Positions 1-15,682 of a DNA stretch of 32,000 bases are shown here, one piece after another. This stretch comes from Candidatus Saccharimonadota bacterium (GTDB lineage Bacteria > Patescibacteriota > Saccharimonadia > Saccharimonadales > Saccharimonadaceae). The translations under genes were made by a program, and so were the position numbers. The stretch spans positions 30,001 to 62,000 of the forward strand of contig JBAQRV010000001.1 of the NCBI GenBank assembly GCA_049296095.1, read 5' to 3'. The notes under the pieces are model-generated. The model ran no database searches. It was not told the origin of the DNA and saw only the letters and a list, made by a program, of their open reading frames with translations. Each line of letters opens with the position of its first letter. Within the stretch, counting starts at the first letter, position 1.

Positions 1-378
1 TGCTAAGAGCTTTACGAGTGGCTCGAGTATTCGGCAATAGTCATTTATAAAATGGCGTAAAGCAGGGCTTAGGTCATAGGTGGTGAAGCTACTATCTCCA
101 GTCGAGCCTTTTGTACGAGCGTAAGGTCGGATACTTGCTTTCTCTGCGGCAGAACTAAAGTCATTCTCACCGTAGCCCTTTTTTACAAATTCTAATGCCA
201 GAACGCGCTCTCGATGCAAGTGCCCCGTAACCTGCTTAGTTGAAGACTCGAAGTCTTCCCGACGAAAGAACATGCCATTTAGATTGCCTGCGTTGTGCTT
301 TCCAGCACCGTTAAGCTTACCTGTAATGTAATTGAGTGTTGTGTATCTTGTTGTCACTGAGATGGTCTCGATTCTCAT
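1..378 (-). CDS. hypothetical protein, C-terminal part cut by window edge
   Basis: Not in the supplied track because it runs off the edge. The reverse-strand ATG at 378-376 opens an uninterrupted frame down to base 1 (126 codons, MRIETISVTTRYTTLNYITGKLNGAGKHNAGNLNGMFFRRE...). No motif recognised. Confidence 0.4.
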   Translation of the reverse strand, partial: MRIETISVTTRYTTLNYITGKLNGAGKHNAGNLNGMFFRREDFESSTKQVTGHLHRERVLALEFVKKGYGENDFSSAAEKASIRPYARTKGSTGDSSFTTYDLSPALRHFINDYCRILEPLVKLLA

Positions 379-496
379 TGGCTAATTATACAACTTGCTT
401 GACCGAAGAAGTAACTTGGTTCTGTAGTGTGTGTATTGAGATTACATTTGATTAAGACACTTAGCAACTTTTTCTTTAGTAGAATATAATTAAATC

Positions 497-1315
497 ATGA
501 CCCTAATATCACTTGCATATAATAGATTCGTTGTTGGTGTATCCACTGATACTCAACTAACTTACATTGATAGCGGAACTTCAGCTGGAGATGCGATAAA
601 AAGCCTTTCTTTTCGCTGTGCAAATGGTAAGTTCCTCGCTGCATATACTGGTAATAACATTTTCCTCGAAGATGGGGTACATGTTGTCGATTGGGTGACT
701 AACCTTCTAAGTAACGCTGACATTGGTAGTAAGAAAGTTGATGAAGTTATACAAGAAATAGTTCAAGGCTTGAACGAAAAACATTATATTAGCCAGCCAG
801 CAGCGTTAATAATTCTTATCGCTGGTTGGCGAGAAAATAATAATATTGTCTATCGGATTACGAACATCGGGGAGGATGGAGACCTATCTCCTAAGCAAAC
901 TTTTGAAGTATTTATGAGTGAAGACGAGAGTGGTGTTATTGTCGATGGCTCTATCAAGATAGGTATGGACGATAGTTTTGACACTAAGGTTGAGGCCGTA
1001 AGGGAATTGCTAAAATCAACAACACCAGAGAATTTCAGAGACATTATCGGTCCTGAGCTTTACAGTCTTAATCAGATTGCCCACAATCACCCAACCCAAG
1101 GTAAGTACATCGGTGAAAATACAATGTTCACGTTTATTCAGCCTGTGGGCGATGGGATGGACGCTTGGAGGTATCCTGAAGGACAAACAAAGTATATGCT
1201 ACCTAATTTCAGCAATGCAGCGATGTCAGTCAAGGGAATTGTCGTTCACAATGACCCCGTAGAGGGTGGAACAATACAGATGGACATCAAGGGCTGGCCT
1301 CCCCGTAAGGGTTAA
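497..1315 (+). CDS. HslV/proteasome-beta-like Ntn-hydrolase candidate with C-terminal extension
   Basis: 272 aa. The N-terminus MTLISLAYNRFVVGVSTDTQ matches the recalled HslV [20 protein letters not shown] (Thr2, Asp18, Gln20). Lys35 and NGKFLAAYTGN correspond to HslV NDKVIAGFAGG. TATAAT at 485-490 lies 6 nt before the ATG. Confidence 0.5.
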   Translation: MTLISLAYNRFVVGVSTDTQLTYIDSGTSAGDAIKSLSFRCANGKFLAAYTGNNIFLEDGVHVVDWVTNLLSNADIGSKKVDEVIQEIVQGLNEKHYISQPAALIILIAGWRENNNIVYRITNIGEDGDLSPKQTFEVFMSEDESGVIVDGSIKIGMDDSFDTKVEAVRELLKSTTPENFRDIIGPELYSLNQIAHNHPTQGKYIGENTMFTFIQPVGDGMDAWRYPEGQTKYMLPNFSNAAMSVKGIVVHNDPVEGGTIQMDIKGWPPRKG

Positions 1316-1317
1316 TA

Positions 1318-1968
1318 ATGGATTACTCATGGAAGCCTGACGGCCATAAGATTAAAGTTCAGGGTGTACCATATCAATGGCCATTAGCACTTAGAAACTT
1401 CGTACTACCTGTTAGACATCAGGATGGTTGGATTGAAAACAGTAAAAACGTGACCAATACTGGTTTGAGTGCGAGAGAATGGTTTGGACTGGTGGTACAC
1501 GCCGTAGCAATGTCAGATGTTAGTGGCGACGAGATTCTTGTGGCAACTGAAGACACGGGTGGCGATGGTGCTGTCGTTAGTGTCGAGAATGGTGAAAATA
1601 TGGCAGTGCTTGTTGAGCAAACCCTTGCGACCCACAAAGAAGATGGTGACTTACTTGATGTCATTAGGCGGAGGGTTAGAGCGAAGTCTTCTATGGGTGA
1701 AAATTATGCAGAGAATAAACATTTAGTTATTCTTTGTAATAACAACGGTGATTTAATCGAGAAAAAGTTAGCAAAGATTGTATCTATAGGGATGTTTGAT
1801 ATCGTGAATATCATCGGATTCCAAGATAATGAACAGGGAAGACACTTTTTGAGTTATATTTTTGATAAGGACGTGCCCAATAAAGCAATTCACAGGATGG
1901 TTATTGATGACAGTAAGCTATGGCAAGCTGCGATTGATATATTTGAAGAAGAACAGAAAGTAAAATAG
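1318..1968 (+). CDS. hypothetical acidic protein, coupled partner of the HslV-like ORF
   Basis: 216-aa ORF starting 2 nt after the upstream stop. No recognisable motif. A weak PD-(D/E)xK-like stretch (GDGAVV...LVEQT) is not convincing. Confidence 0.5.
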   Translation: MDYSWKPDGHKIKVQGVPYQWPLALRNFVLPVRHQDGWIENSKNVTNTGLSAREWFGLVVHAVAMSDVSGDEILVATEDTGGDGAVVSVENGENMAVLVEQTLATHKEDGDLLDVIRRRVRAKSSMGENYAENKHLVILCNNNGDLIEKKLAKIVSIGMFDIVNIIGFQDNEQGRHFLSYIFDKDVPNKAIHRMVIDDSKLWQAAIDIFEEEQKVK

Positions 1969-2186
1969 CTTTAAATTACACCGAGTCAATGTACGTCAAT
2001 CCTAATAAATGATAGTTGTATTTTCTGTTGATTTTTTAGCGAGTATGCCGTTACTCGTTATTGCCAACTCGGACGGATTATCAATTCTATAGCCCAAGAG
2101 TTTAAGAAGATTCTGTAAATGTGCACCAATTTTCGTTATACATATAAAAGCCCTAGGACAGGTGGTTTCTTTGCTATTATTAAACG

Positions 2187-2777
2187 ATGATTGATGAACG
2201 CTTTGTTTTTGTTGCATTTGCACTCGCCCTGGTTGGTACAGCTATGTACATCAAGGGTATCCTACAGGGTAAGGTGAAGCCTAATATTGTGACCTGGGGT
2301 TTGTGGGCAACAGCACCCCTCCTTGCGGTTGCTGCGCAGATCGATGAAGGAGCAGGGCTTCGTGCTGTCCATACATTTAGTACTGCTTTCGGCCCAATGC
2401 TCATTATCGTGGCGGCATTGATTAAGCGAAATGCTTTCGCAAAGATTAAAAAGTCCGACTACATCTTTGGGGCGTTAGCGATAACCGGCCTCGTATTATG
2501 GCAAATTACAGGGCAAGGCTATCTGGCAATTATATTTGCAATTGCAGCTGATGGTTTTGCTGCACTCCCTACTATCTTGAAACTTTATCGAGAGCCGAAA
2601 ACTGAAAATGGCGTGATTTTTGGTTTTGGTATCCTTGCTTCTACTATCACATTGCTTACAATTAGTGACTGGAGATTTGAAGAGTTTGGTTTCACGTTAT
2701 ACATTCTCATTATCACTATTATTATGTTCCTGCCGACAGGCGTTCGCTTCACTTCGAAAATCCTAAGAAAGAAATAA
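2187..2777 (+). CDS. polytopic membrane protein, unknown function
   Basis: 196 aa with about six hydrophobic segments. It has the conserved-looking N-terminal motif GILQGKVKPNIVTWGLWA. TGcTATTAT at 2172-2180 lies 6 nt before the ATG. Confidence 0.6.
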   Translation: MIDERFVFVAFALALVGTAMYIKGILQGKVKPNIVTWGLWATAPLLAVAAQIDEGAGLRAVHTFSTAFGPMLIIVAALIKRNAFAKIKKSDYIFGALAITGLVLWQITGQGYLAIIFAIAADGFAALPTILKLYREPKTENGVIFGFGILASTITLLTISDWRFEEFGFTLYILIITIIMFLPTGVRFTSKILRKK

Positions 2778-2846
2778 CAGTAAGCTTCAGAGGCTCCTGG
2801 TAAAAACAAGCATCTTGTGTACATGTTTCTTTGGTATGATTAGTTT

Positions 2847-3863
2847 ATGAGAATATCCATTGAAGAATTAAGAGAAAAAGTAAACACCTATCTGAAGCTG
2901 AGCGGACTTAACGGCAAAGACGCATCGACGCTGGGTGATTTGATTATTGAACAAGAACTGGTCGGAAACCAGTTTAGTGCTGTCGGCGAATTGCCCGGAA
3001 AGCACGCTCGATTGATTGAAAGTATTCAAACTGCCCAACCAGAAATTGAGGTGACAAAGCCAGCTCTTCGCCTCGTGAAGGGCGACGGTCAATTGGCACC
3101 AATTATAACTGCCGATCACTTAGATGATGTTATAGCAAAGGCAAAAGAACAAGGAATCTACGCCTTGGGTATTTACGACAGCACCTATAATGATTTCTTC
3201 GACGTTTTCTGCCGTCGAGTGGCCGCTCAGGATTGTATCGCTATTATTGTTGAGAACGGTGGACCGCAAGGAGTTGTTCCTTTTGGTGGACGCAAAGACA
3301 TTACGGGTACGAACCCAATTGCTTACGGTATCCCGACGAACAAGTATCCGATTATTTTTGACGCTGCAACGGCAATGCATGCCTACGGAAGAATTAGGCA
3401 GGCGAAAGAACGAGGTGAACAGCTACCAGATAACGCATATGTTGACGAGAATGGTGATACAACAACCGACCCGAATGTTGCATATGCCGTTCTGCCATTT
3501 GGTGGGTTCAAAGGATTCGGCATTAACCTACTCATTGATGTTTTGAGCGGTAGTCTGGTGAAGGGTAAGAGTGGACTAGACCAGCCACTAGATTCACAGC
3601 GGTACATTGGAACGCTGATGATCGTCATTGACCCAGCAGCGTTTGGCGATATTGAAACTTTCAAAGAGTCTACGACGAAGCTCGCCGAAGATATACTGGC
3701 CGTACCGCCAGTTAACCCGAACGAACCAGTTAGGGTACCAGGCTATAGAGGGTCTGAGCGTAGAGAACGATTTACAAAAGATGGCTTTATTGAGATTGAA
3801 GATGAAGAGTGGGATAAGTTTGCTATGGCATTAGACAGTCTAGAGCAATCAGCTAGTAAATAA
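2847..3863 (+). CDS. Ldh_2 family (malate/L-lactate/sulfolactate dehydrogenase type 2) oxidoreductase
   Basis: 338 aa. Family-typical motifs are FGGRKDITGTNPIAYGIP and PFGGFKGFGINLLIDVLSG. Confidence 0.75.
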   Translation: MRISIEELREKVNTYLKLSGLNGKDASTLGDLIIEQELVGNQFSAVGELPGKHARLIESIQTAQPEIEVTKPALRLVKGDGQLAPIITADHLDDVIAKAKEQGIYALGIYDSTYNDFFDVFCRRVAAQDCIAIIVENGGPQGVVPFGGRKDITGTNPIAYGIPTNKYPIIFDAATAMHAYGRIRQAKERGEQLPDNAYVDENGDTTTDPNVAYAVLPFGGFKGFGINLLIDVLSGSLVKGKSGLDQPLDSQRYIGTLMIVIDPAAFGDIETFKESTTKLAEDILAVPPVNPNEPVRVPGYRGSERRERFTKDGFIEIEDEEWDKFAMALDSLEQSASK

Positions 3864-3938
3864 TCATCGTAATTCTTTACTGTCTGGTATTGGAAGCTCG
3901 GATAAGTTCTGTGAATGTGTACCAAATCTTGCTCATGC

Positions 3939-3968
3939 TTGCAAAAGTGGTCCGAACCCTTCATAACT
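3939..3968 (+). promoter_or_regulatory. candidate promoter TTGCAA-N17-CATAAC(T), conserved with the 26800-26829 locus
   Basis: GCTTGCAAAAGT (3937-3948) and CATAACT (3962-3968) are identical, with the same 13-nt gap, to 26798-26809 and 26823-26829. Confidence 0.5.
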
Positions 3969-4035
3969 AATGGCAGTCACCACACCGTGTGGGGCCTCGA
4001 GTAATCGAGTGAGCCCCTAGGAAGGGATGAAGTTA

Positions 4036-4200
4036 ATGTACTCAGTTGGTCCCGGTTCACTGCCAAGTATCGAGCTGACTATTCGCAAGGTCGATGACAA
4101 GCTGATGCTTCGTGTCGGCCCGACCAAGCGCGAAGCGAAACGACTCGCCGACATGAAGCGCAGTCGTCTCGCTCGAGCCAGACGAAAACGCCGGCGTTAG
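4036..4200 (+). CDS. small Arg-rich protein candidate (54 aa; 57 aa if ATG 4027 is used) in a GC-rich island
   Basis: Below the track cutoff. GGAAGGG (4020-4026) lies 9 nt upstream of ATG 4036. Product MYSVGPGSLPSIELTIRKVDDKLMLRVGPTKREAKRLADMKRSRLARARRKRRR. A hairpin at 3991-4017 (GGGGC-CTCGA-gtaa-TCGAG-tga-GCCCC) sits just upstream. Confidence 0.35.
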   Translation: MYSVGPGSLPSIELTIRKVDDKLMLRVGPTKREAKRLADMKRSRLARARRKRRR

Positions 4201-4224
4201 CTAGCTAAGCCCGCACCTGCGGAT

Positions 4225-4290
4225 GAAAAGACCCGACATACCAACCTGTCGATGAGTCATTCATCTACAGGCGTCGGGCTCTTTTCATGT
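4225..4290 (+). terminator. compound hairpin with flanking A-run and T-run (intrinsic terminator candidate)
   Basis: GAAAAGACCCGAC (4225-4237) pairs with GTCGGGCTCTTTTC (4273-4286). An inner stem joins CCTGT (4245-4249) and ACAGG (4267-4271). Confidence 0.45.
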
Positions 4291-4350
4291 TAGTGTACTT
4301 TCCACCGTCTTTAAGAAGTCAATTTGGCTTCTTTTTGTTACTATTAAGTT

Positions 4351-4758
4351 ATGAACATACGAAACTATGCGCCGTCGGATTACGGGCAGTTAAAGACTTT
4401 GTACCTCGATAGCTCCTTCTATGGTGGTCAATTTGACGAAGCTCGGGATTCTGAAGAACGATTAAGAAAGATTGGCCATGATTCAATCCTCGTAGCAGAA
4501 GATAACGGTATGATTTTTGGCACAGTTTCCCTCATTGATGATGGTAGGGTCGCTTGGCTGTTTCGTTTTGCTGTTAAAGACAATGATCTAAAGGTTGCTC
4601 GTGCGTTAAAGGAGAAGGCGATCGAGGTTCTTAAGTCAAGAGGTCATACACAGGTCCTCGTATACTCTCCTATAGATAACAAACAATTAGATCGTCGCTA
4701 TCTTGACCTAGGCTTTAATAAGGGTGGAGACTACACTGCTTATTGGCAGGAAGTGTAG
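4351..4758 (+). CDS. GNAT-family N-acetyltransferase
   Basis: 135 aa with typical GNAT layout: MNIRNYAPSDYGQLKTLY..., a beta-bulge region WLFRFAV, and ARALKEKAIEVLKSRG in the acetyl-CoA-binding helix position. Confidence 0.65.
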   Translation: MNIRNYAPSDYGQLKTLYLDSSFYGGQFDEARDSEERLRKIGHDSILVAEDNGMIFGTVSLIDDGRVAWLFRFAVKDNDLKVARALKEKAIEVLKSRGHTQVLVYSPIDNKQLDRRYLDLGFNKGGDYTAYWQEV

Positions 4759-4761
4759 TAT

Positions 4762-5346
4762 ATGAAATCAAGGTACATACCTTTCGTCCAGCAACCCTAC
4801 TGTTGTGTTGCTGCTTGCTTCCAAATGGTTATGTATAGGAATGATATTCCGCTTATTCCACAAGACGAACTTGCTTATAAATTAGGACTAACTGTCCCAG
4901 AGAATGACGCTCATCTATTCGAAAGAGTTCGGACTGGTTCAAAACCACCTTCAGGTTGGGGGACGCAAATTAGTAAACCTGAATATAATCCTAACGAAGT
5001 ATTTAAAGAGCTGAACATTCCATTAGGCCTCGAACAATTCTTTATGAGGGATTTTATTGACATTACAGGACTCAAAAAACTACTCACGACTATTCAAGCA
5101 GAGGACGGAGATGCATTACTCTGCTTTGATTATGGTAAGTTATGGGGGCTTCCGCAAAAAGGCGGTCACGTCTGCGTATTCGACCGCATTGAAAACGATA
5201 CCATTTATATAATTGATCCAGAGCGGAACGTGCCCAAGTATAGGAATGTCTCACTAGGGGCGTTATTTAAGGCGATGAACTTTCATGGAGACGCTAATTC
5301 TACTGGGGTATGGAAAATCGTTCCAACTGATTCATCTGCTAAGTAG
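4762..5346 (+). CDS. papain-fold cysteine peptidase, C39-like
   Basis: 194 aa. It has Gln/Cys (FVQQPYCCVAACFQMVM) and His/Asp (GGHVCVFDRIENDTIYIIDPE) arrangements as in C39-like peptidases. It starts 4 nt after the GNAT stop. Confidence 0.55.
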   Translation: MKSRYIPFVQQPYCCVAACFQMVMYRNDIPLIPQDELAYKLGLTVPENDAHLFERVRTGSKPPSGWGTQISKPEYNPNEVFKELNIPLGLEQFFMRDFIDITGLKKLLTTIQAEDGDALLCFDYGKLWGLPQKGGHVCVFDRIENDTIYIIDPERNVPKYRNVSLGALFKAMNFHGDANSTGVWKIVPTDSSAK

Positions 5347-5447
5347 CTTATATGATACGTTGAACACATTTACAAGTCCGCCTAGCTCATAGCTGGGACT
5401 TTTTGTTTATGCTTGCTTATGTTATCGGCGGCTCATAAAATAAAAAA

Positions 5448-6023
5448 ATGACACAACCAGAGTCCAAAGAATCTCGATCATTCAACCTCCGGGACTTTAA
5501 CGAGTGGATGTTAAATGATGCGGGAGAATTAGAAATATCTACACAATTTCGTCACCCGATTCAAATTTTGGCTGGTGATAATAAATTAGAGTTTACTCGA
5601 ATCTCTATCTCGGGAGAATTTACAGAGCGGTCGCCTAGGGTTCCAGAGAGCTTGTTTGTATTAAGGAATATGACATCTGCACGTGGGGATGCTTTGGTTG
5701 TTATGGATAACACCATGGGGATTGATACGGTAGTGTTGCATAGTACAGAATACTCGATTAGGCGTGGCAAGTCATACACAATAGGAACCGAAGCAACGCC
5801 TGAACTTGATCTATCAGACACCGCTAACCCTGAACATCTTTTTATTCGAATCGGTAATCTAGCAGGAAATCTTCATTTTTCCGATCTTTATACTAAAAAC
5901 GGAACAATTGTAAATGTCCACCCCGAAGACAACTGGTCACTTTCGCATCCTCGAAGGTCGGGCATTTACCAAGATGGAAAATTTCTCTCTGACGAATATC
6001 AACGCCAACAATGGTTACGATAG
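5448..6023 (+). CDS. FHA-like domain protein
   Basis: 191 aa. The C-terminal half YTIGTEATPELDLSD...PEHLFIRIGNLAGNLHFSDLYTKNGTIVNV follows the FHA pattern (G-x...H-x-x-I...DL-x-S/T-x-NGT-x-VN). The phospho-Thr-binding Ser positions are substituted (N, T). Confidence 0.45.
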   Translation: MTQPESKESRSFNLRDFNEWMLNDAGELEISTQFRHPIQILAGDNKLEFTRISISGEFTERSPRVPESLFVLRNMTSARGDALVVMDNTMGIDTVVLHSTEYSIRRGKSYTIGTEATPELDLSDTANPEHLFIRIGNLAGNLHFSDLYTKNGTIVNVHPEDNWSLSHPRRSGIYQDGKFLSDEYQRQQWLR

Positions 6024-6194
6024 ACCCTAGTAAGCTAAAAGAATTCTCGAAAAGGTACTTAAATTGATTGAGAAGATTCTGTTTTACCACTCCAAATTAG
6101 CTCAACTCAGACGCCCCAGCGTGTCTTATCTTGCCGCCTAACTCCCTAAGTACTAAAATGAATAAGGATAACCTTAATAAAAAGGAGTATAAGA

Positions 6195-6575
6195 ATGGCG
6201 AAATATATCGATGGTTTTGTACTAGTAGTTCCAAAAGGCAAAGAAGCCGAATACCAGAAAATGGCAGAAATGGGCCGGGATTCTTGGATGAAGCACGGTG
6301 CGCTTCAGTACTTCGAGTCTAGAGGAGATGACCTCAAGCCGCAGGAAATGGGTGAGGAAAAATCACGAGCTTTTAATGAAATGGCTGGTGCTAATGAGGA
6401 TGAAAATGTTTGGTTTTCATTCATTGTTTTCGAATCGAAAGAACACCGCGATGAAGTAAACAAAAAGGTCATGGATGAAATGAATGAAACATATAAAGAC
6501 CAAACTGATTTTGAAATGCCTAGTGACATGAAGAAGATGGCCTATGGGGGGTTTGAGGTTGCGGTTGAAGGATAG
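6195..6575 (+). CDS. DUF1428 family protein
   Basis: 126 aa. The N-terminus MAKYIDGFVLVVPKGKEAEYQKMAE...HGALQYFE is characteristic of DUF1428. SD AAAAGGAG lies upstream. Confidence 0.75.
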   Translation: MAKYIDGFVLVVPKGKEAEYQKMAEMGRDSWMKHGALQYFESRGDDLKPQEMGEEKSRAFNEMAGANEDENVWFSFIVFESKEHRDEVNKKVMDEMNETYKDQTDFEMPSDMKKMAYGGFEVAVEG

Positions 6576-6627
6576 ATCAAGATACTAAAAGATTGTATAT
6601 TCTGATCATCAAGCTTATGATAAACCT

Positions 6628-7392
6628 ATGACCAAACCAACCACAAAAGGCCTCAGAATCTTTAACTTTATCATGGCCGCCTTCCATGGTATTCAAGGTG
6701 TTATCATATTAATTATCAGTCGAAGCTTCGACGTCCCCATCACCGGTAGCTATCTGACGTTCGATAAGGCGACGCAGACGCTGGAGCCGGCCACGACTCA
6801 TCTGTTCGATCTGTCAATTCCGCTGTTGGTTGCACTGTTCTTCTTCTTGTCGGCAGCAGCGCATCTGTTTATCGCGACCGTCTATAACAGAAAATACAAC
6901 CAGGATCTGGCCAAGGGTATCAACAAGATTCGCTGGATTGAATATTCAGTTTCAGCCAGTCTTATGATGGTGGCTATTGCCGTGCTTGTTGGTGTGTATG
7001 ACTTTACGAACTTGTTGATGATCTTTGTCCTGATCGCTCTCATGAATCTCTTAGGTCTAGTGATGGAAGTTCACAACCAAACGACCAAGAAGACTAACTG
7101 GTTGAGTTACTGGCTGGGGTGCTTGGCGGGGATTGTGCCGTGGTTTGTGATTGGCTTTTACTTTTGGCTATCGGCCGAGCAGGGAAGTGCGCCTCCAGAC
7201 TTTGTCTATTGGATCTTCGTCTCGATCTTTGTCTTCTTTAACCTCTTTGCGATTAACATGGTGCTGCAGTACAAAAAGATTGGTCCTTGGAAAAACTATT
7301 TGTACGGCGAACGTGCGTATATCATCTTGAGTCTGGTCGCAAAAACTCTGCTGGCTTGGCAAGTATTTGCTGGCACGCTCCAACCTATGTAG
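6628..7392 (+). CDS. heliorhodopsin
   Basis: 254 aa, 7-TM. It aligns throughout with recalled HeR 48C12: FHGIQ (His23 equivalent), AAAHLF (His80), RWIEYSVSAS (counterion Glu107), CLAGIVPW, GERAYIILSLVAKTLLAWQVFAGTLQP. The Schiff-base Lys is K239 (codon 7342-7344). Confidence 0.88.
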   Translation: MTKPTTKGLRIFNFIMAAFHGIQGVIILIISRSFDVPITGSYLTFDKATQTLEPATTHLFDLSIPLLVALFFFLSAAAHLFIATVYNRKYNQDLAKGINKIRWIEYSVSASLMMVAIAVLVGVYDFTNLLMIFVLIALMNLLGLVMEVHNQTTKKTNWLSYWLGCLAGIVPWFVIGFYFWLSAEQGSAPPDFVYWIFVSIFVFFNLFAINMVLQYKKIGPWKNYLYGERAYIILSLVAKTLLAWQVFAGTLQPM

Positions 7393-7415
7393 CTATCGAG
7401 AATACATGATTTTAT

Positions 7416-7432
7416 ATACCCCTAGGGGGTAT
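7416..7432. promoter_or_regulatory. CsoR-family operator palindrome overlapping an extended -10
   Basis: ATACCCC-TAG-GGGGTAT is a perfect 7-bp inverted repeat of the GC-tract type bound by CsoR/RcnR-family repressors. It abuts TGaTATACT (7432-7440). Confidence 0.65.
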
Positions 7433-7447
7433 GATATACTTGGTACT

Positions 7448-7726
7448 ATGAATAGTACAGATATACCGAAAGCTCAAATTATAAAACGACTCAATCGTGC
7501 CGAAGGCCAGGTACGGGGTATTGCCCGTATGGTGAGCGAGGATCAGCAGTGTATTGATGTGCTGACTCAGATTAATGCCACCAGAGCAGCACTGGATAAG
7601 GTTGCGATCGAACTTGTGAGGGAATATGCCCAGCAGTGCTTTACCAATGAAGCTTTGACAGAGAAACAGATGAAGCAAAAATCAACCGAGCTAGTCGGGG
7701 CGATGAGCCGCCTGTTTTCTCGGTAA
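7448..7726 (+). CDS. CsoR/RcnR/FrmR-family (DUF156) metal- or persulfide-sensing repressor, CstR-like Cys pair
   Basis: 92 aa from ATG 7448. The track start 7367 overlaps the heliorhodopsin gene and the operator. Family motif KAQIIKRLNRAEGQVRGIARMV. Sensor positions are Cys35, Tyr60 (in place of His) and Cys64. Confidence 0.8.
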   Translation: MNSTDIPKAQIIKRLNRAEGQVRGIARMVSEDQQCIDVLTQINATRAALDKVAIELVREYAQQCFTNEALTEKQMKQKSTELVGAMSRLFSR

Positions 7727-7748
7727 CTTGAATACTTAAGGAGGGAAT

Positions 7749-8012
7749 ATGAAGGATTACATTATTATCGATGTTCGCGAACCAAGGGAGTTTGCTAATG
7801 GTCACGTTAAAGGTGCGATTAATATTCCGCCAACTGAACTAATGTCTGGCTCGCCAAAGTTAGCTGGCGTTGCAAAAGATGCCCCAATTATGCTGTATTG
7901 CATTAGCGGTAGCCGTTCGAATATGTCGATGCACATATTGAGTGGACTAGGGTATACCAACCTCACAAATGGAGTTAATCGACAACGGGTTGAGGCGCAA
8001 TTGCGGGCGTAG
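7749..8012 (+). CDS. single-domain rhodanese sulfurtransferase
   Basis: 87 aa. It has IIDVREPREFANGHVKGAINIP and the active-site loop CISGSRS. SD AAGGAGG lies upstream. Confidence 0.8.
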   Translation: MKDYIIIDVREPREFANGHVKGAINIPPTELMSGSPKLAGVAKDAPIMLYCISGSRSNMSMHILSGLGYTNLTNGVNRQRVEAQLRA

Positions 8013-8127
8013 TATCTATTATCGGGATGAGGGCTACCAATAAGTTAGTATTCTGTCACATAAAGATCATAGACTCGATCACTAATAAGAGGTAAAATAG
8101 GCACAGATTCATAGGGAGATTCAGTCC

Positions 8128-9684
8128 GTGCCAGAAGACCAAAAGAAACAATTGCAGACACAACTTTGGAGTATTGCCAACGATCTTCGCGGCAAGATGG
8201 GTGCTGATGAATTCAGGGACTATATTCTTGGATTTATTTTCTATAAATATCTTTCTGAAAAGATGGAGCTCTATGCTGACGACCTACTTGAAACAGATGG
8301 TCTGAAATATGCTCAGATTGATGAAACTACTCCGAGGGCCAGTGAAATCATCGAAGCTGTTCAAGAAAATGCTGTCGACAAATTAGGTTATTTCTTAAAA
8401 CCAAACGAGCTGTTTACCCGAATCGCCGCGCATGGAACGGCGAGTGACAACTTAATTGAGGAGCTTGAACGAATCCTTAATAACATTCAAAACAGCACGA
8501 TGGGTCATGATAGTGAAGATGATTTTGAAAGCCTTTTCTCAGAGCTTGATCTTAACTCGCAACGTTTAGGAAAAACAGTCTCACAACGAGCAGAGCTGAT
8601 TGGTAAGGTCTTGGTACACTTGGATAAGATTGATTTTCAGCTACAAAATAGTACCATTGATGTCCTAGGTGATGCGTATGAATATCTCATCAGTCAGTTT
8701 GCATCGGGTGCGGGTAAAAAGGCTGGTGAATTTTATACTCCCCAGGAAGTCTCGACGGTCCTCGCGCGTATCGTGACAGATGGCAAGAAGAAATTAAAAA
8801 CCGTCTATGACCCGACGGCCGGATCGGGTTCCTTGTTGCTCCGTGTTGCTCGCTACGTCGAAGAAGTTGGTATGTTTTACGGACAAGAACTCAACAATAC
8901 GACCTACAACCTAGCACGTATGAACATGATTCTTCATGACGTGAATTACGATCGTTTTGATATCAAGCAAGAAGATACACTAGAACACCCACAACACCTG
9001 CAGTACAAATTTGAGGCGATTGTGGCTAACCCTCCATTTAGTGCTAACTGGTCGGCTGACCCAATTCACTTACAAGATGATCGCTTTAGTGGGTATGGTA
9101 AGTTAGCTCCAAGCAGCAAGGCGGATTATGCATTTATTCAGCATATGATTTATCAGCTTGATGAGAATGGCACGATGGCGGTGGTTATGCCTCATGGCGT
9201 ATTGTTCCGTGGCGGGGCAGAAGGGGTCATTCGTGAGTATCTGATTCGAGAAAAGAATTATTTAGATGCGGTGATTGGTTTGCCCGCAAACCTTTTCTTT
9301 GGAACTTCGATTCCTGCGACTATTCTAGTATTTAAGAAGTGCCGAAAAGATACCGGTCATATATTGTTTATTGACGCTAGCAAACATTTTGAAAAGGGCA
9401 AGAATCAGAATCGACTACGACAAGTTGATATCGATAAAATTATTAACACACTTGAATATCGCAAGTCTGTAGATAGATATAGTTACGTAGCGCCACTCAG
9501 CGAGATAAAAGAGAACGATTATAATCTAAACATTCCACGCTATGTTGATACATTTGAGGAAGAAGAAGAGATTGATCTGAATGCCGTGACAGAGGAAATC
9601 CGTAAGCTGGATACGGAGTCTTCAGAGTTAGATGCAAAGATTGCTAAATATACAAAGGAACTCGGCATACAGTCGCCGTATTAA
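8128..9684 (+). CDS. hsdM: type I restriction-modification system, DNA methyltransferase subunit M
   Basis: 518 aa. GTG start preceded by AGGGAG. N-terminal LWSIANDLRG helix, AdoMet motif VYDPTAGSGSLL and catalytic NPPF (IVANPPFS). Confidence 0.92.
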   Translation: MPEDQKKQLQTQLWSIANDLRGKMGADEFRDYILGFIFYKYLSEKMELYADDLLETDGLKYAQIDETTPRASEIIEAVQENAVDKLGYFLKPNELFTRIAAHGTASDNLIEELERILNNIQNSTMGHDSEDDFESLFSELDLNSQRLGKTVSQRAELIGKVLVHLDKIDFQLQNSTIDVLGDAYEYLISQFASGAGKKAGEFYTPQEVSTVLARIVTDGKKKLKTVYDPTAGSGSLLLRVARYVEEVGMFYGQELNNTTYNLARMNMILHDVNYDRFDIKQEDTLEHPQHLQYKFEAIVANPPFSANWSADPIHLQDDRFSGYGKLAPSSKADYAFIQHMIYQLDENGTMAVVMPHGVLFRGGAEGVIREYLIREKNYLDAVIGLPANLFFGTSIPATILVFKKCRKDTGHILFIDASKHFEKGKNQNRLRQVDIDKIINTLEYRKSVDRYSYVAPLSEIKENDYNLNIPRYVDTFEEEEEIDLNAVTEEIRKLDTESSELDAKIAKYTKELGIQSPY

Positions 9685-9687
9685 GCC

Positions 9688-10866
9688 ATGGGCCTCATCT
9701 CACAAGCTAAAGATATCTATATACCTAAACTACGCTTCTCCGAGTTTTATGATAAGTGGGAGGTTAAATCACTCTTAAGCGTAGTATCTTTTAGAAATGG
9801 CAAGCCTTTCGAAACTTTCGTCGAAGAGAACGGTAAGTATAAACTGATTACAATAGACTCAGTAGATATAAACGGTAAATTAAAGACAAAGTTCAAAACA
9901 GTAAATCAAGCAGACGGTTCTTTAAGTAAGAACGATATCATTATCGTGCTTAGTGATATCGCTCACGGCTACCTATTGGGGCGCTCATGTTTAATACCTG
10001 AAAATGATACTTTCGTGCTTAACCAACGAATGGGAAGGTTGAGGCCTAAGCAGAAAGATTCAGCCGCTTTTATCAGTTTGTATATAAATAACCACCAATA
10101 CTTTTTTAGAAGTAGAGGCCAGGGAACCTCGCAGAGACATATATATGAACGCGATATTAATCAATTTGAAATTAAATTACCATCGACTATTGAACAACAA
10201 AAAATTGCTGCATTTTTAACGACCATAGAGGATAAGCTGACAGTAGATGAGAATCAGTTAGACCTATTAAGGAAGTACAAAAAGAGTGTAGTAAAAAAAA
10301 TCTTTAGGCAAGAAATTCAGTTTATGAACGATGCAAATCAACCTTACCCTAAATGGGCTGAAGTAAAGATCGGTGATATAACACAGAATTATGATAATAA
10401 ACGAAAGCCTATATCTTCAGAATTACGTACGGCGGGCGAGTTTCCTTATTACGGCGCAAATGGCGTAGTTGATTATGTAGAGGATTACATATTCAATGGT
10501 GAGTATGTATTAGTGGCGGAAGATGGAGTGGTCGATATTTCTAAGTATCCAGTCCATTTTGTAAGGGGAAAATTCTGGGTTAATAATCATGCTCATGTTC
10601 TGCAAGGCAAGGATGTCGATAATATATTCTTGTACTATGTTTTGCACAGCACCAGGTTTGTAAAGTATATTACAGGTTCAGCGCAGACCAAGTTAAATAA
10701 TCAAATATTAAGAAGTATTAAAGTTACCATACCGATTGATGAAGGTGAACAGCGCAAAATAGCTGATTTTTTGTCTACGATAGACGCCAAGATTCAAATC
10801 GAAGAAGCAAAGCTGAGGGAATCAAAAAAGTTTAGAGCGGCCCTCGTGCAAAGGATGTTTGTATGA
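9688..10866 (+). CDS. hsdS: type I restriction-modification system, specificity subunit S
   Basis: 392 aa. Two variable target-recognition halves are each followed by the conserved spacer helix (EQQKIAAFLTTIEDKL and EQRKIADFLSTIDAKI). Confidence 0.9.
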   Translation: MGLISQAKDIYIPKLRFSEFYDKWEVKSLLSVVSFRNGKPFETFVEENGKYKLITIDSVDINGKLKTKFKTVNQADGSLSKNDIIIVLSDIAHGYLLGRSCLIPENDTFVLNQRMGRLRPKQKDSAAFISLYINNHQYFFRSRGQGTSQRHIYERDINQFEIKLPSTIEQQKIAAFLTTIEDKLTVDENQLDLLRKYKKSVVKKIFRQEIQFMNDANQPYPKWAEVKIGDITQNYDNKRKPISSELRTAGEFPYYGANGVVDYVEDYIFNGEYVLVAEDGVVDISKYPVHFVRGKFWVNNHAHVLQGKDVDNIFLYYVLHSTRFVKYITGSAQTKLNNQILRSIKVTIPIDEGEQRKIADFLSTIDAKIQIEEAKLRESKKFRAALVQRMFV

Positions 10867-11363
10867 GCAATGTTCAGCACGTTCTCTTCTATTCTCAAAT
10901 CACATTTGCAATGAATGCTGCACGGATACATAAATCATTGGCAATGGATAGAGAATTCAATAGAACAGAGCGCGAATTAATCACATACTCACAGGGTGTG
11001 ATGATTATTAACGCTGCAAAAATATGGGATAGAACAGGATATAATATAGAGAAATTTATACGCCAATCGAACGCGAAGGACGACGAGAAGGGTAGGCTAT
11101 TAAAAGGAGCATTGAAGATAAAAACGGGCCATCGGGTAACGATCGATAAGGTGAAATTGTGGCGAAATAAACTTATTGCTCACCTCGATAAAGATATGAA
11201 TACTACGGAGCAATTTAACGAATTTGACGGAGATGTTTCTGATATACAAATGATGATACAGGATGTTGCCGACCTTGTATCAAGCGCGAGTTGGTATCCT
11301 GAGAAGAATAGACCAATGACATTTCTCGACTATGACCAGATAAAAAGTGAGTTAAAACTATGA
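10863..11363 (+). CDS. small HEPN-motif protein (AbiU2-like) embedded between hsdS and hsdR
   Basis: 166 aa, predicted all-helical. The Rx4-6H motif is R101-NKLIA-H107 (WRNKLIAHLD, codons 11163-11183). ATGA overlaps at both ends (10863-10866 and 11360-11363). Confidence 0.55.
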   Translation: MSNVQHVLFYSQITFAMNAARIHKSLAMDREFNRTERELITYSQGVMIINAAKIWDRTGYNIEKFIRQSNAKDDEKGRLLKGALKIKTGHRVTIDKVKLWRNKLIAHLDKDMNTTEQFNEFDGDVSDIQMMIQDVADLVSSASWYPEKNRPMTFLDYDQIKSELKL

Positions 11364-14218
11364 CCACCCAATCCGAACAGTCCCTTGAAAACGAACTTCT
11401 TACCCAACTCCAGGGCTTGAAATACGAGCGTATCATCATTTCGGACGAGGCGAGCCTGGTTGCCAATCTTCGTACTCAAATAGAAAAGCACAACAATATT
11501 ACACTTACCGATAAAGAATTCACAAAAATTCTCAACCATCTCAGCAAGGGTAATGTCTACGAACGTGCTAAGATCCTGCGTGATAAATTTCATCTCATTC
11601 GCGATGATGGAAAGACGCCGCTCTACATAGAATTCTTTAATTCTCGTGACTGGTGTCACAACGAATTTCAAGTTACCAATCAAGTAACTGTCGAAGGAAG
11701 CTACAAGAACCGCTACGATGTCACTATTCTCATCAATGGTTTACCTCTTGTACAAATAGAGTTGAAGCGCAACGGACTTGGTTTAAAAGAAGCGTTCAAC
11801 CAGACGAATCGTTACCAGCGCCATAGCTACGATGCAAGTTATGGTCTTTTCCAATATATTCAAATGTTTGTTATTAGTAACGGCTCTAATACCAAATACT
11901 ATGCCAATAATCGAAAGCAAGATTTTAAGTTTACTTCATTCTGGACGGACGTAGATAACAACAAGATTACAGAACTTCATGAGTTTACTGATGTTTTCCT
12001 CGATCGATGTCACGTTGCAAAAATGATCGCCAAATATACTGTGCTGACAGAAGCAAGGACATTAATGTTGCTTCGGCCATATCAATACTACGCAGTGGAG
12101 AAAATTGTAGATCGAGTAAAGAATAGCACCAAAGGTGGTTATATATGGCACACCACAGGAAGTGGGAAGACCCTTACCTCCTTTAAAGCTAGTCAGATCC
12201 TGGTTGACCTTCCCGAGATTTATAAAGTAGTCTTTGTCGTTGACCGAAATGACTTGGATACCCAGACCATACGTGAATTTAATGAATTCCGAAAAGACAG
12301 TGTCGATAGCACTGACAGTACGCGTAACCTAGTGAAGCAGTTCGGTGATCCGGATACGAAGCTTATTGTCACCACGATTCAAAAACTCAACAATGCAATC
12401 ACAAACGACCGACACGCTCTAAAAATGGATAAACTGCGTGACGAAAAGGTAGTATTTATCTTTGATGAATGTCATCGTAGCCAGTTCGGTGAGACACATA
12501 AAAAGATCACCGAATACTTCACTAATCATCAGCTATTCGGATTCACGGGGACGCCTATCTTTGCCGAGAATGCCAGTGGTAACGGCCTGGGTAAGCGCAC
12601 GACAGCGGACCTATTCGGAGAAAAGCTCCATAGCTATGTCATTACTGACGCAATTGGAGATGAGAATGTCTTGAAGTTTGCAGTGGAGTACGTAGGTAAA
12701 TATAAATACAAAGACGGGAGTGCGAATAATGTTGATATTGACGTCGAGGCAATAGACAAAAAAGAATTAATGGAATCACCGCAACGGCTTGAGAAGATAG
12801 TTGATTATATTTTGGATTATCACGCGGCCAAGACCTATAACTGTGATTACTCGGCCATCTTTGCAGTCAGTAACGTCGACACCCTTACTAAATATTACGA
12901 GATTTTTAAGGCCAAACAAGCAGGACTCGATCGACCACTCCGTATTGCAACTATCTTTAGCTATGCAGCAAACGAGGATGATAAAGACGCTAACGGTATG
13001 CTCGATGCTGATATCGATATAACGACAAGCGGTCCGATCAATCAACATTCTCGCGATAAGTTAGAGAGTTATATTGCGGACTATAATGCGCAATTCGGGA
13101 CAAACTACACAACGAAAGATAGTAAGAGTTTTTATAGCTACTATCGAGACATTGGGCAGAAGCTAAAGAATCGTGAGAAGACTGACTTACCAGAAGATCG
13201 AATAGACATCCTACTGGTGGTCAATATGTTCCTGACGGGATTTGATGCGAAAAAAGTAAATACGCTCTACGTTGACAAGAATTTGCGTTACCATGGGTTA
13301 TTGCAGGCTTACTCACGGACAAATCGAATTATTAATGAAACGAAATCCCAGGGTAATATTGTTGTATTCCGTAACTTAAAAGAAGCGACTGATGACGCCC
13401 TTGCGTTGTTTGCAGATAAGAATGCGAATGAGACGATCTTCATTGAGCCTTACGAGCACCACATTGTTGCCTTTAATGCTGCGCTCGCACATCTCCTCCA
13501 ACTGACTCCTTCTCCGGCCGATGTCGATAGATTGGTAGGGGAACAGGCAGAGCTTGATTTTGTGACTGCATTCCGTGAGTTACTGCGACTCAAGAATACA
13601 CTTATTACTTTCGCGGATTTCACCTTTGATCACACTGGCATATCAGAGCAAGTCTTCGAAAGCTTTAAGAGCAAGTATCTCGATATCTATGCCAAGGTTC
13701 GTCATGAGCATGAACCCGAGAAAGTCTCTATCTTAAATGATGTTGACTTTGAGCTAGAGCTTATTCGTCGTGACGACGTGAACGTCGATTATATCCTAAG
13801 GCTCTTAACGCAATTAGTCGGCGCGTCAGGCGAGGACAAGACTCGCTTAATCCGTAATATTTTCTCAACCATGTCCGGTGACCCTGTACTGCGAAGTAAA
13901 CGAGACTTAATTGAAAAGTTTATTAACGGGACAATTCCTAAGATCAGCGACAGAGAAGAGGTTGAGAGTGCATTCGAAAACTTTTGGTCAGTGGAGCGTG
14001 CCGACGCTTTAAAACGTATAAGTGATGAAGAGGGTGCGGTCAGTGAGAAATTAGAGAAGCTGGTAGAAGACTATATATTTACCAATCGAAAGCCACGACG
14101 GTCGGATCTTGTGAATGCGCTGGTCAAGAAGCCAGGCATTTTGCAAATAAATGGCATCCTCAAGCGACTTAATGCAAAATTTAGTGACTATCTAGAGACG
14201 TTCGTAGATGGTGCTTAG
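11360..14218 (+). CDS. hsdR: type I restriction enzyme, endonuclease/translocase subunit R (EcoR124-like, type IC by recollection)
   Basis: 952 aa. N-terminal PD-(D/E)xK core YDVTILINGLPLVQIELKR, Walker A TTGSGKT, DEAH-type FDECHRSQ and FVISNGSNTKYYANN. Confidence 0.92.
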   Translation: MTTQSEQSLENELLTQLQGLKYERIIISDEASLVANLRTQIEKHNNITLTDKEFTKILNHLSKGNVYERAKILRDKFHLIRDDGKTPLYIEFFNSRDWCHNEFQVTNQVTVEGSYKNRYDVTILINGLPLVQIELKRNGLGLKEAFNQTNRYQRHSYDASYGLFQYIQMFVISNGSNTKYYANNRKQDFKFTSFWTDVDNNKITELHEFTDVFLDRCHVAKMIAKYTVLTEARTLMLLRPYQYYAVEKIVDRVKNSTKGGYIWHTTGSGKTLTSFKASQILVDLPEIYKVVFVVDRNDLDTQTIREFNEFRKDSVDSTDSTRNLVKQFGDPDTKLIVTTIQKLNNAITNDRHALKMDKLRDEKVVFIFDECHRSQFGETHKKITEYFTNHQLFGFTGTPIFAENASGNGLGKRTTADLFGEKLHSYVITDAIGDENVLKFAVEYVGKYKYKDGSANNVDIDVEAIDKKELMESPQRLEKIVDYILDYHAAKTYNCDYSAIFAVSNVDTLTKYYEIFKAKQAGLDRPLRIATIFSYAANEDDKDANGMLDADIDITTSGPINQHSRDKLESYIADYNAQFGTNYTTKDSKSFYSYYRDIGQKLKNREKTDLPEDRIDILLVVNMFLTGFDAKKVNTLYVDKNLRYHGLLQAYSRTNRIINETKSQGNIVVFRNLKEATDDALALFADKNANETIFIEPYEHHIVAFNAALAHLLQLTPSPADVDRLVGEQAELDFVTAFRELLRLKNTLITFADFTFDHTGISEQVFESFKSKYLDIYAKVRHEHEPEKVSILNDVDFELELIRRDDVNVDYILRLLTQLVGASGEDKTRLIRNIFSTMSGDPVLRSKRDLIEKFINGTIPKISDREEVESAFENFWSVERADALKRISDEEGAVSEKLEKLVEDYIFTNRKPRRSDLVNALVKKPGILQINGILKRLNAKFSDYLETFVDGA

Positions 14219-14294
14219 GTGAGTCTATTATGTTTGACTTGCTCAAGACGGCACGCTATGGGCATTTTGGCCACGAAGGATTCAGCTGGGAAAA

Positions 14295-14690
14295 TTAGTT
14301 ATCCTTAAAAATCGAATAAAGTATAACCACCACAATACCACCAAGAACAATCCAGCCCCAGTCGAATCCGTCATCTGAATCTGAACTCGAGCTATAGTCA
14401 GAGTCATCGTAAGAGTAGCTACTATCGTATGACTCGCTATCATCATAGTCGGAAGAATAGTCGTATTCAGAAGGGAGCGATTCACAAGCTACCCCGTCAT
14501 CATCACCATCGAGGTAGTTAGGGTCTCCATAATTACTTTCGTACTCGTCTTGCGCTTCTTCCTGGGTAGAGAAGTCGTCGCAGTTATATTGGTTGTAGGC
14601 AGATGCGGGCGTCGTCACAGAGAGGGTGGTCAGCGTTAAGGCAAACACTATAGCAATAGACAATAGGAACGTGCGGCGCAGTATCTGCAT
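14295..14690 (-). CDS. secreted/anchored Excalibur calcium-binding domain protein
   Basis: 131 aa. It has a signal peptide, the Excalibur motif [12 protein letters not shown]...[15 protein letters not shown], an Asp/Ser/Tyr-rich tail and a C-terminal TM segment [18 protein letters not shown]. Confidence 0.75.
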
Positions 14691-14792
14691 GATGACGCTA
14701 TTATACGCTTTGGAACTGTCAAACTGAAAAGATAAACGATACTTAATTTAAAACAGGTCACAGAGCATAAGCTAGAAAACCAAAAAGTAAAA

Positions 14793-14801
14793 TGGTATAA
14801 T
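14793..14801 (+). promoter_or_regulatory. extended -10 (TGgTATAAT) 6 nt upstream of the vbhA-like start codon
   Basis: TATAAT lies at 14796-14801 and the ATG at 14808, with no usable SD spacing. This implies a leaderless transcript. Confidence 0.55.
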
Positions 14802-14807
14802 GAGGGC

Positions 14808-15008
14808 ATGATTACGTCAAAAAATGCACGTAGAGAAAAAGCGGTTTCGGCAGCAATTTGGTCAGTCAAAGCTGAGGGGTTACGTTCTTCAAAAAGTGCC
14901 AGCCGCAATCTAAAACAATACGCATCTGGCAAGATATCCGCCAAACAACTTCGCACTAATACGACACTCCATGTCCAGTCTGTTGTTATGCGCCACACCG
15001 TTAAATAA
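14808..15008 (+). CDS. VbhA-type antitoxin (Fic inhibitory module)
   Basis: 66 aa. It contains the inhibitory motif [S/T]xxxE[G/N] as S-VKA-E-G (WSVKAEGL; compare VbhA SQRLEGL). It ends 3 nt before the Fic gene. Confidence 0.7.
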   Translation: MITSKNARREKAVSAAIWSVKAEGLRSSKSASRNLKQYASGKISAKQLRTNTTLHVQSVVMRHTVK

Positions 15009-15011
15009 CTT

Positions 15012-15632: not shown

Positions 15633-15682
15633 TCTCGCCATTTTTCAAAGATTTTAGCATAAGGGGATTATAATGAACCACA

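Follow-up and report, generated by a model that had tools for sequence, protein, structure and literature searches.

A 32,000-nt stretch of DNA from Candidatus Saccharimonadota bacterium (assembly GCA_049296095.1, contig JBAQRV010000001.1, positions 30,001 to 62,000 of the forward strand; hereafter the window) carries two adjacent open reading frames (ORFs), A and B, for which we propose the following reading: ORF A would encode an orphan N-terminal nucleophile (Ntn) hydrolase of the proteasome type, ORF B would belong to a separate accessory family, their pairing would be specific to one lineage, and a role in genetic conflict would be the likeliest function. We assign this reading as a whole a probability of about 0.6. 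Both ORFs are present exactly as listed in an earlier account made from the letters of the DNA (the sequence-only reading): the stop codon TAA of ORF A (1313-1315) is followed by 'TA' and then by the ATG of ORF B at 1318, leaving a gap of 2 nt. The ATG at 497 is the sole possible start of ORF A, given the in-frame stop at 491-493 upstream of it, so that the MTLI N-terminus is unambiguous. The two products are 100% identical to NCBI entries 'MAG: hypothetical protein WAV04_03270' (ORF A) and WAV04_03275 (ORF B), and both are acidic, with isoelectric points of 4.77 for ORF A and 5.25 for ORF B; the acidity of the latter had been noted in the sequence-only reading.

Few proteins are related to ORF A. 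Among 5.8 billion proteins, a word-indexed search identified 17 clusters at 90% identity, 51-100% identical to ORF A, two of which name an organism in their source, in both cases a member of Saccharimonadales. An exhaustive hidden Markov model (HMM) search of 1.84 billion representatives identified 55 A-family clusters, nearly all of which align their own residue 1 to profile position 1; the closest members come from Saccharimonadales, one remote member comes from Ca. Nomurabacteria, and the rest are unnamed metagenomic proteins. The alignment on which the following counts and the profile named A3 are based comprises 45 homologues with a mean column identity of 20%, reaching down to ~18% identity to ORF A. 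All 45 start at Met1, which is followed by Thr in 43 sequences and by Ser in the other 2; residue 18 is Asp in 44 sequences and Glu in the remaining one; Met1, Lys35, Gly52, Asn123 and Gly151 are invariant, and position 49 is always occupied by a small residue. Thr2, Asp18 and Lys35, which the sequence-only reading had singled out by comparison with HslV, are therefore matched by T/S, D/E and K in 45 of 45 sequences, and the fourth residue that it cited, Gln20, lacks such conservation, with Arg at this position in 32 of 45. This pattern of conservation is the signature of a predicted Ntn hydrolase that lacks a propeptide and keeps the Thr1-Asp/Glu17-Lys33 spacing of the proteasome and HslV. 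Ser152 is conserved within the Saccharimonadales clade only, where the tail of the protein is also strongly conserved (PNF.N..MSV.G..VHNDP.EGG) and is modelled without confidence; a remote subgroup of the family with members of ~323 aa carries a C-terminal SEC-C metal-binding motif. One homologue with 77% identity to ORF A (P0003, on a 5,197-bp JGI contig) has been called from an internal Met and is without the first 23 residues, including Thr2 and Asp18, which could be a gene-calling artefact or could mark a degraded copy.

Comparison of the A3 profile with proteasome-type sequences places the conserved residues of ORF A in register with the known catalytic residues. Against the PDB, the profile matched a T. 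cruzi proteasome beta subunit at a sub-threshold E of 0.43, in an alignment that begins at the mature Thr1 and sets T2, D18 and K35 of ORF A on Thr1, Asp17 and Lys33. The hhalign score was 29.8 against T. acidophilum beta, with 106 columns in register (12.9 ± 2.0 for shuffles, reached by 0 of 150), and 24.9 against E. coli HslV (12.7 ± 2.4 for shuffles, reached by 0 of 150), in the latter case with residues 1-53 of ORF A on residues 1-50 of HslV. The controls were 150 composition-preserving shuffles of each target sequence, and the pairwise E values of 1e-3 to 5e-3 correspond to scores 5 to 8.5 standard deviations (sd) above them. In these alignments Thr2 of ORF A falls on Thr2 (mature Thr1) of HslV, Asp18 on Glu17 of T. 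acidophilum beta and on the Asp of HslV, and Lys35 on Lys33. A shallow profile (A1) gave a probability of 0.4% against HslV, and a usable signal was obtained with the deeper A3 only. Both reference sequences were checked against the PDB, where T. acidophilum beta is 100% identical to 3c91_H and HslV agrees with 5ji3_A at 175 of 176 positions; the E. coli HslV N-terminus quoted in the sequence-only reading was thus correct. One of the 45 family members matches Pfam PF00227 (E = 0.029), and ORF A itself does not.

An AlphaFold2 model of ORF A, built from a 16-sequence alignment, has six N-terminal strands, a helix pair, four strands, a second helix pair and two strands, which is the order of the proteasome fold and agrees with its four-layer alpha-beta-beta-alpha sandwich. 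A Foldseek search of the PDB with this model, a check proposed in the sequence-only reading, gave 32 matches at E ≤ 1e-3 (best E = 1.8e-5); no curated profile was significant. The top 48 PDB matches all come from proteasome subunits (mostly beta subunits), Anbu or HslV, and TM scores, normalised to the target, reach 0.60; HslV chains 4ho7_A and 3ty6_C are among them, and Anbu chains rank 8-9. Because confidence in the model is low, the Foldseek result needs independent sequence evidence. The family-wide T/S2-D/E18-K35 pattern, the alignments to HslV and Thermoplasma beta and the structural matches together make it highly probable that ORF A belongs with the proteasome-beta/HslV-like Ntn hydrolases and that its Thr-Asp-Lys catalytic triad is intact, as the sequence-only reading had suggested. 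The roughly 100-aa C-terminal extension that it described is not supported: a tail of ~45 residues lies past the last core strands, and the remainder of the length beyond HslV lies in the longer loops of a larger core.

ORF A can be set against three kinds of known protein. Like ORF A, HslV starts with Met-Thr and has no propeptide, its T2, D18 and K34 (counting from Met) correspond to T2, D18 and K35, and a G-x-x-G segment after strand 4 is common to both. HslV, however, has 176 aa compared to the 272 aa of ORF A and lacks the ~45-residue tail and the longer loops; it is readily recognised by HslV/proteasome profiles, whereas ORF A has no NCBIfam or Pfam match; and it is encoded in a conserved heat-shock operon with hslU, whereas the A genes are patchy and island-like with no unfoldase gene nearby. 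The sequence-only reading had reported that no gene for an AAA+ unfoldase adjoins ORF A, and this extends to the whole window and to 10 kb upstream of it, where we found no HslU-, Clp- or proteasomal-type unfoldase; the sole AAA+ gene near ORF A is of the MgsA/RarA type and lies on the opposite strand, 2.4 kb upstream. Given the lack of hslU or another unfoldase gene, ORF A is not HslV proper. The 20S proteasome beta subunit (PF00227) provides both the best structural match and the best profile alignment, with the catalytic residues in register, but ORF A stays below the Pfam threshold, has neither an alpha subunit nor a propeptide, and its family does not conserve the further proteasome residues discussed below. 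As a kind, ORF A fits the description of the orphan homologues, which comprise Anbu, BPH and the 22 prokaryotic proteasome-homologue subfamilies (e.g., DAH, RPC, WPH, PMI and PHD) that Fuchs, Alva and Lupas described in 2021 (PMC8665760), so that the general idea of a separate self-compartmentalising protease lineage, raised in the sequence-only reading, is not new and the A family adds a member to the known orphan homologues. Those subfamilies keep Thr/Ser1-Asp17-Lys33, have no propeptide or AAA+ partner and often carry a C-terminal extension (PMC8665760); they occur in narrow or patchy taxa, have no informative gene context and no known function, and ATP-independent clearance was proposed for them (PMC8665760). 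Neither Saccharibacteria nor Patescibacteria are mentioned in that study (PMC8665760), and the accessions of the Ca. Nomurabacteria homologue P0113 (e.g., OGI61000.1) are not among its listed representatives. In contrast to the subfamilies without informative context, the A family is found repeatedly in defence-type islands, and in one relative it shares an operon with a retron reverse transcriptase (RT) gene.

We next consider the pairing of A with B, which the sequence-only reading had proposed as a co-conserved unit. The survey covered 24 loci around A or B homologues, each of which was also searched by tblastn and with family HMMs; contig searches for further loci in a genome and a metagenome collection gave one locus each. 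Three places show A next to B: the window genome, a relative with 80% identity (L009), and, by inference, the 5,197-bp contig that carries P0003 together with the B homologue P0020. In L009 the gap between A and B is 1 nt, and B is followed by a KAP-family nucleoside triphosphatase (NTPase) gene resembling QatA/PifA. Neither tblastn nor profile search found the two together at the 8 further distinct A loci and the 3 further distinct B loci examined, and different neighbours flank every A homologue of 51-55% identity as well as every B homologue of 49-67% identity that was examined. The A homologue stands alone in L010, L016 and L019, and several such A genes have a promoter of their own. In L005 and L001, A is followed by a 275-285-aa MauJ-domain protein (PF17419) with an RHASAH (Rx4H) motif, and in L001 A begins 4 nt inside the end of a gene for a 294-aa retron RT (PADLOC RT_VI, E = 1.1e-72, full length). 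In L020, A comes after a retron-like RT, a protein with a helix-turn-helix (HTH) and an M78 peptidase domain, and a DUF4411/PIN-like protein; an RT is present in the relatives L001/L002 and L020/L021 only. A remote member (L015) is alone in its locus, adjoining a gene for a 1,697-aa helicase that matches the PDC-S37, Hhe and MkoA models.

The B homologues have an equally varied setting. One with 65% identity (L023:1-5666) is the fourth and last gene of a type I restriction-modification (R-M) operon, hsdR-hsdM-hsdS-B, overlapping hsdS by 4 nt, which is by analogy the kind of position occupied by abortive-infection add-on genes in R-M loci; another comes after an unrelated 197-aa protein (L003), and a third ends a NUDIX-Ham1-GrpB-NUDIX cluster (L022). 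The possibilities that the 197-aa protein 5' of B is a cryptic relative of A, or that the MauJ-like partner of A is a cryptic relative of B, were rejected on hhalign probabilities of 0.2% in each case and on profile searches of the loci. The varied neighbours of A and of B mark each as an independently mobile accessory gene, and we consider it likely that neither family conserves the pairing. Operonic coupling of A and B is specific to a narrow Microsaccharimonas lineage and does not define a two-component machine. A stretch of 56 nt located 3' of B in the window (2074-2129) is 87.5% identical to L009:12997-13052; in L009 it is separated from B by the KAP NTPase gene and a gene for a 171-aa product, which marks an insertion/deletion boundary.

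The 25 homologues of ORF B are 49-100% identical to it and share 35 invariant positions, which include WIENS, REW..L..H, DG, VEQTLAT, KS, N.HL and CN, a pattern typical of an enzyme, and from this conservation ORF B is probably an enzyme. Searches of Pfam, PADLOC, NCBIfam and PHROGs with ORF B, and of PDB sequences with the B family profile, gave no match. The structure model has a pLDDT of 89 and a predicted template-modelling score (pTM) of 0.88; its best fold match (E = 3.4e-3) is an unrelated acetyl-CoA carboxylase domain. Residues 52-141 form an alpha(52-69)-beta-beta-beta-alpha-beta arrangement, the order of restriction-endonuclease-like nucleases; Asp83, ahead of beta-2, and Glu100, 17 residues further on in beta-3, are both invariant, and there are weak scattered matches, none significant, to BsmI, SwaI, Cdn1, Cas4 and other PD-(D/E)xK proteins. 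Compared with PD-(D/E)xK nucleases, the core order and D83/E100 fit, whereas the motif reads E-Q-T and no match is significant; we regard a nuclease identity for ORF B as a lead, and as rather less likely than not. A nitrilase-like Glu-Lys-Cys arrangement (E100, K123 and C140, with weak formamidase matches) was rejected for misfits of spacing and size and root-mean-square deviations of 11-12 Å. One further protein, P0031 on a 1,123-bp ENA contig, is 91% identical to B over residues 60-216 and differs in its own first 105 residues; the segment standing in place of B residues 1-59 resembles, by eye, a Cro/C1-type HTH. This HTH-like segment may be compatible with a nucleic-acid-directed activity of B, and it may represent either a real domain swap or an assembly chimera.

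The expression signals of the locus suggest that ORF A has a promoter of its own and that translation of ORF B is coupled to that of ORF A. The site TTAGCA-18-TATAAT is the best sigma-70-like site in positions 1-2900, with 10 of 12 matches; in the same interval 9 sigma-70-like sites were found compared to 7.3 expected by chance, a count so near chance that the site alone is weak evidence. However, its TATAAT box, which the sequence-only reading had taken for the promoter of the pair, ends 6 nt 5' of the ORF A ATG with no Shine-Dalgarno (SD) sequence between, and a -10-like box (TATAAT/TACAAT-like) stands 6-9 nt 5' of the ATG, again without an SD between, in 9 of 11 independent A-family loci (beside window 485-496, these include L005, L009, L010, L012, L016, L019 and L020), so that a promoter of its own for ORF A gains support from the recurrence. 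Since a -10 box abutting the ATG without an SD recurs across the family, the ORF A mRNA is probably leaderless. The SD-like TAAGGGT within the end of ORF A and the 2-nt gap suggest translational coupling of ORF B to ORF A in the window. We found no intrinsic terminator 3' of ORF B.

The pair lies in a variable, accessory part of the genome, as the sequence-only reading had placed it: GC content is 0.37-0.46 across positions 1-16,000 of the window, compared to 0.47-0.51 in the housekeeping part (ligA, Mur ligase, leuS). A conserved BipA-trehalase-MgsA block lies upstream of A and B both in the window genome and in L009, and the genes directly flanking the pair differ between the two, which indicates a variable region. 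Starting 6 kb downstream of the pair is a type I R-M operon that includes a HEPN AbiU2 gene; Fic/DOC and topoisomerase genes come after it (Table 1). Among the neighbours of A relatives we find genes for a KAP NTPase, a retron RT, a second retron-like RT, a HEPN-Toprim protein, a Hhe/Mokosh-like helicase and an SLFN-like helicase. The A and B families alike occupy variable islands of lower GC content, often close to defence genes. That A functions in defence or conflict is possible, at somewhat less than even odds.

One relative carries what looks like a retron. In a Saccharimonadales metagenome-assembled genome (JAWVHA010000010.1, locus L001), positions 4842-7694 contain a retron-like cassette in which the A homologue stands 3' of the RT gene, the usual position of a retron effector (a feature of this relative). 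Ntn, proteasome and MauJ effectors are absent from the retron classification of 2020 (Mestre et al., PMC7736814), and on this account the RT-A-MauJ-like cassette of L001 may be an undescribed retron variant. An Rfam search beside A homologues, L001 included, identified neither a known retron msr RNA nor another RNA family next to them. Unlike a retron, which consists of an RT, a non-coding RNA and an effector, the window locus has no RT gene, and most A genes do not lie beside one; no ORF bearing RVT_1 was found among the window ORFs scanned or upstream. As RTs occur in the relatives only, the link to retrons concerns these relatives and not the window locus. Two further observations were made in the same locus: an Rfam LOOT RNA at L001:9027-9140 on the minus strand (58.4 bits against a gathering threshold of 46.4), 2.2 kb 3' of the A homologue, and a non-coding repeat of ~150 nt at L001:4409-4558 and 3467-3617 (79% identity), which also occurs in another Saccharimonadales genome at L005:4482-4611 (75%).

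We propose that ORF A would be made from its own leaderless transcript and that methionine aminopeptidase, for which Thr is a permissive second residue, would remove Met1 and expose Thr2 as the N-terminal nucleophile. Acting with Asp18 and Lys35, Thr2 would use its free alpha-amine and its hydroxyl to attack amide bonds, most likely peptide bonds, in the manner of HslV and the proteasome. A would work without an AAA+ unfoldase, as a self-sufficient catalytic module. B would be a lineage-specific co-effector coupled to A in the narrow Microsaccharimonas lineage, and A would be the constant module for which B, a MauJ-like protein or a retron RT serve as interchangeable partners in conflict with phages or mobile elements. 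We hold a conflict role to be the most likely because A is constant, its neighbours are interchangeable and its loci are island-like.

Several results count against this reading, and the rival explanations draw on them. ORF A has no significant match in Pfam, NCBIfam, PADLOC, PHROGs or PDB sequences; its model has a mean pLDDT (predicted local distance difference test score) of 57 and a pTM of 0.62, with the C-terminal 46 residues below 50; the hhalign probabilities are low (7% and 22%); and conservation across the family does not extend to the counterparts of proteasome Ser129, Asp166 and Ser169. From the low model confidence, the low probabilities and the missing profile match it could be argued that A is not a proteasome-type hydrolase at all, its likeness being an artefact of a poor model and a short N-terminal motif. 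We judge this very unlikely, as the top 48 Foldseek matches all belong to one superfamily, 45 divergent sequences starting with Met-Thr/Ser keep nucleophile, acid and base without exception at precisely the spacing of the proteasome, and the alignment scores stand far above the shuffled controls. We give hardly any weight to a role of A as a sequence-specific transpeptidase or protein ligase that modifies a partner such as B in the manner of archaeal connectase, which is a monomeric proteasome homologue with the same N-terminal nucleophile chemistry (PMC8665760; PMC7980362). The shared chemistry speaks for such a role, and the variable neighbour genes could be its substrates; however, no likeness to connectase stands out among the structural matches, the helical insertion between S3 and S4 that defines connectase is not seen in the predicted secondary structure, and there is no conserved substrate partner.

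The conflict role faces its own difficulties. The immediate neighbours of A and B are metabolic or unknown (Ldh_2, GNAT, DUF1428, heliorhodopsin), with no known defence genes; the tally of ~6 of 10 distinct A loci with a recognised defence-type gene within 3 kb is suggestive and informal; tblastn matched neither A nor B to any of 50,697 phage and 72,556 plasmid records, so that there is no evidence of either being phage- or plasmid-borne; and the SEC-C-bearing subgroup lies between gcvT and gcvH of a glycine-cleavage operon (L013:4832-8853), a context that contrasts with the defence-type islands of the Saccharimonadales clade. These neighbours, the placement of that one remote member in a gcvT-gcvH-gcvP operon, and the conclusion of Fuchs et al., who found no context suggesting a function and proposed ATP-independent clearance (PMC8665760), would fit a housekeeping or nutritional peptidase of reduced-genome epibionts that degrades unfolded proteins or peptides without ATP, next to incidental genes. 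Such a role is rather improbable in view of the very patchy distribution (17 clusters among 5.8 billion proteins), the low-GC island, the change of position between related genomes, and the recurrence of A beside retron RTs, defence-type helicases and NTPases, and recombinases, all of them features atypical for a housekeeping protease. A further possibility, in line with the two-gene effector/defence module of the sequence-only reading, is that A and B work together as a genuine two-component module, with the Thr peptidase processing, activating or degrading a latent nuclease-like toxin B in a toxin-antitoxin or abortive-infection unit. The 2-nt gap with the SD for B inside the end of A, the adjacency in the 80%-identical relative (1-nt gap) and probably on the contig with P0003 and P0020, the close trailing of A homologues elsewhere by a second, MauJ-like gene, and the enzyme-like conservation of B all favour it. 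We nevertheless find it unlikely, since no other A or B locus surveyed shows the two together, A occurs by itself, under its own promoter, in several loci, and B homologues end unrelated operons. For B itself, the beta-3 motif is E-Q-T and not (D/E)xK and lacks the Lys, and a Foldseek search of the PDB and BFVD with the B model, also proposed in the sequence-only reading, gave no match below 1e-3.

It is conceivable, and on balance doubtful, that the A family represents an unrecognised class of anti-phage component, a proteasome-like Thr peptidase acting alone or with swappable partners (B, a MauJ-like protein with the Rx4H motif, a retron RT). If so, this would be the first biological role assigned to any orphan bacterial proteasome homologue, with a new type of retron effector in the relatives and a pair of peptidase and nuclease-like abortive-infection proteins in the window. 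Should the link to defence hold, a Thr-Ntn peptidase would be a new catalytic type among defence-associated proteases; should it fail, two families of 'hypothetical proteins' would still gain a correct annotation. The contexts of the A family are suggestive, unlike those of the 22 subfamilies: variable islands, a probably leaderless promoter of its own and, in a relative, translational coupling to a retron RT. The A family thereby offers a tractable entry to the role of stand-alone proteasome-like enzymes; it has no Pfam, NCBIfam, PADLOC or PHROGs model, and its named members come from Patescibacteria.

Table 1. Positions of the features discussed, in the window and in the relative L001
Feature	Sequence	Position	Strand	Remarks
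Promoter-like site	window	461..490	+	TTAGCA (461-466), 18 nt, TATAAT (485-490); putative function
ORF A	window	497..1315	+	272 aa, N-terminus MTLISLAYNRFVVGVSTDTQ; very likely a proteasome-beta/HslV-like Ntn (Thr) hydrolase, rare unannotated family
Thr2 codon	window	500..502	+	predicted N-terminal nucleophile after removal of the initiator Met
Asp18 codon	window	548..550	+	counterpart of proteasome Asp/Glu17
Lys35 codon	window	599..601	+	counterpart of proteasome/HslV Lys33
Codons 49-52 (A-Y-T-G)	window	641..652	+	putative counterpart of the Gly47...Gly/Ala50 oxyanion hole, from the alignment
Gly151-Ser152 codons	window	947..952	+	proposed counterpart of the Gly128-Ser129 turn, from position in the secondary structure
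SD-like TAAGGGT for ORF B	window	1306..1312	+	inside the 3' end of ORF A; read from the sequence
ORF B	window	1318..1968	+	216 aa; conserved alpha/beta protein, enzyme-like, independently mobile accessory gene
Heliorhodopsin	window	6628-7392		Pfam E = 2.4e-100; 5 kb 3' of the pair, beside a DUF1428 gene
hsdM	window	8128-9684
hsdS	window	9688-10866
HEPN AbiU2-domain gene	window	10863-11363		166 aa; between hsdS and hsdR, overlaps both
hsdR	window	11360-14218
Fic/DOC protein	window	15012-15632		PADLOC candidate PDC-S04, E = 3.5e-74
Bacterial type IB topoisomerase	window	15683-16663		after the Fic/DOC gene
Leucyl-tRNA synthetase (LeuRS)	window	28566-31496		976 aa; NUDIX domain at residues 394-531, Pfam E = 2.2e-13
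Perfect inverted repeat, 12 nt	L001	4842-4853 / 5083-5094		flanks the 52-codon ORF, just upstream of the RT gene
52-codon ORF	L001	4937-5095
Retron RT	L001	5120-6004		294 aa; PADLOC RT_VI, 1.1e-72
A homologue	L001	6001-6831		overlaps the RT gene by 4 nt
MauJ-domain protein	L001	6867-7694

Among the other genes of the window, the LeuRS carries its NUDIX insertion directly after the editing domain, which is unusual for a LeuRS.

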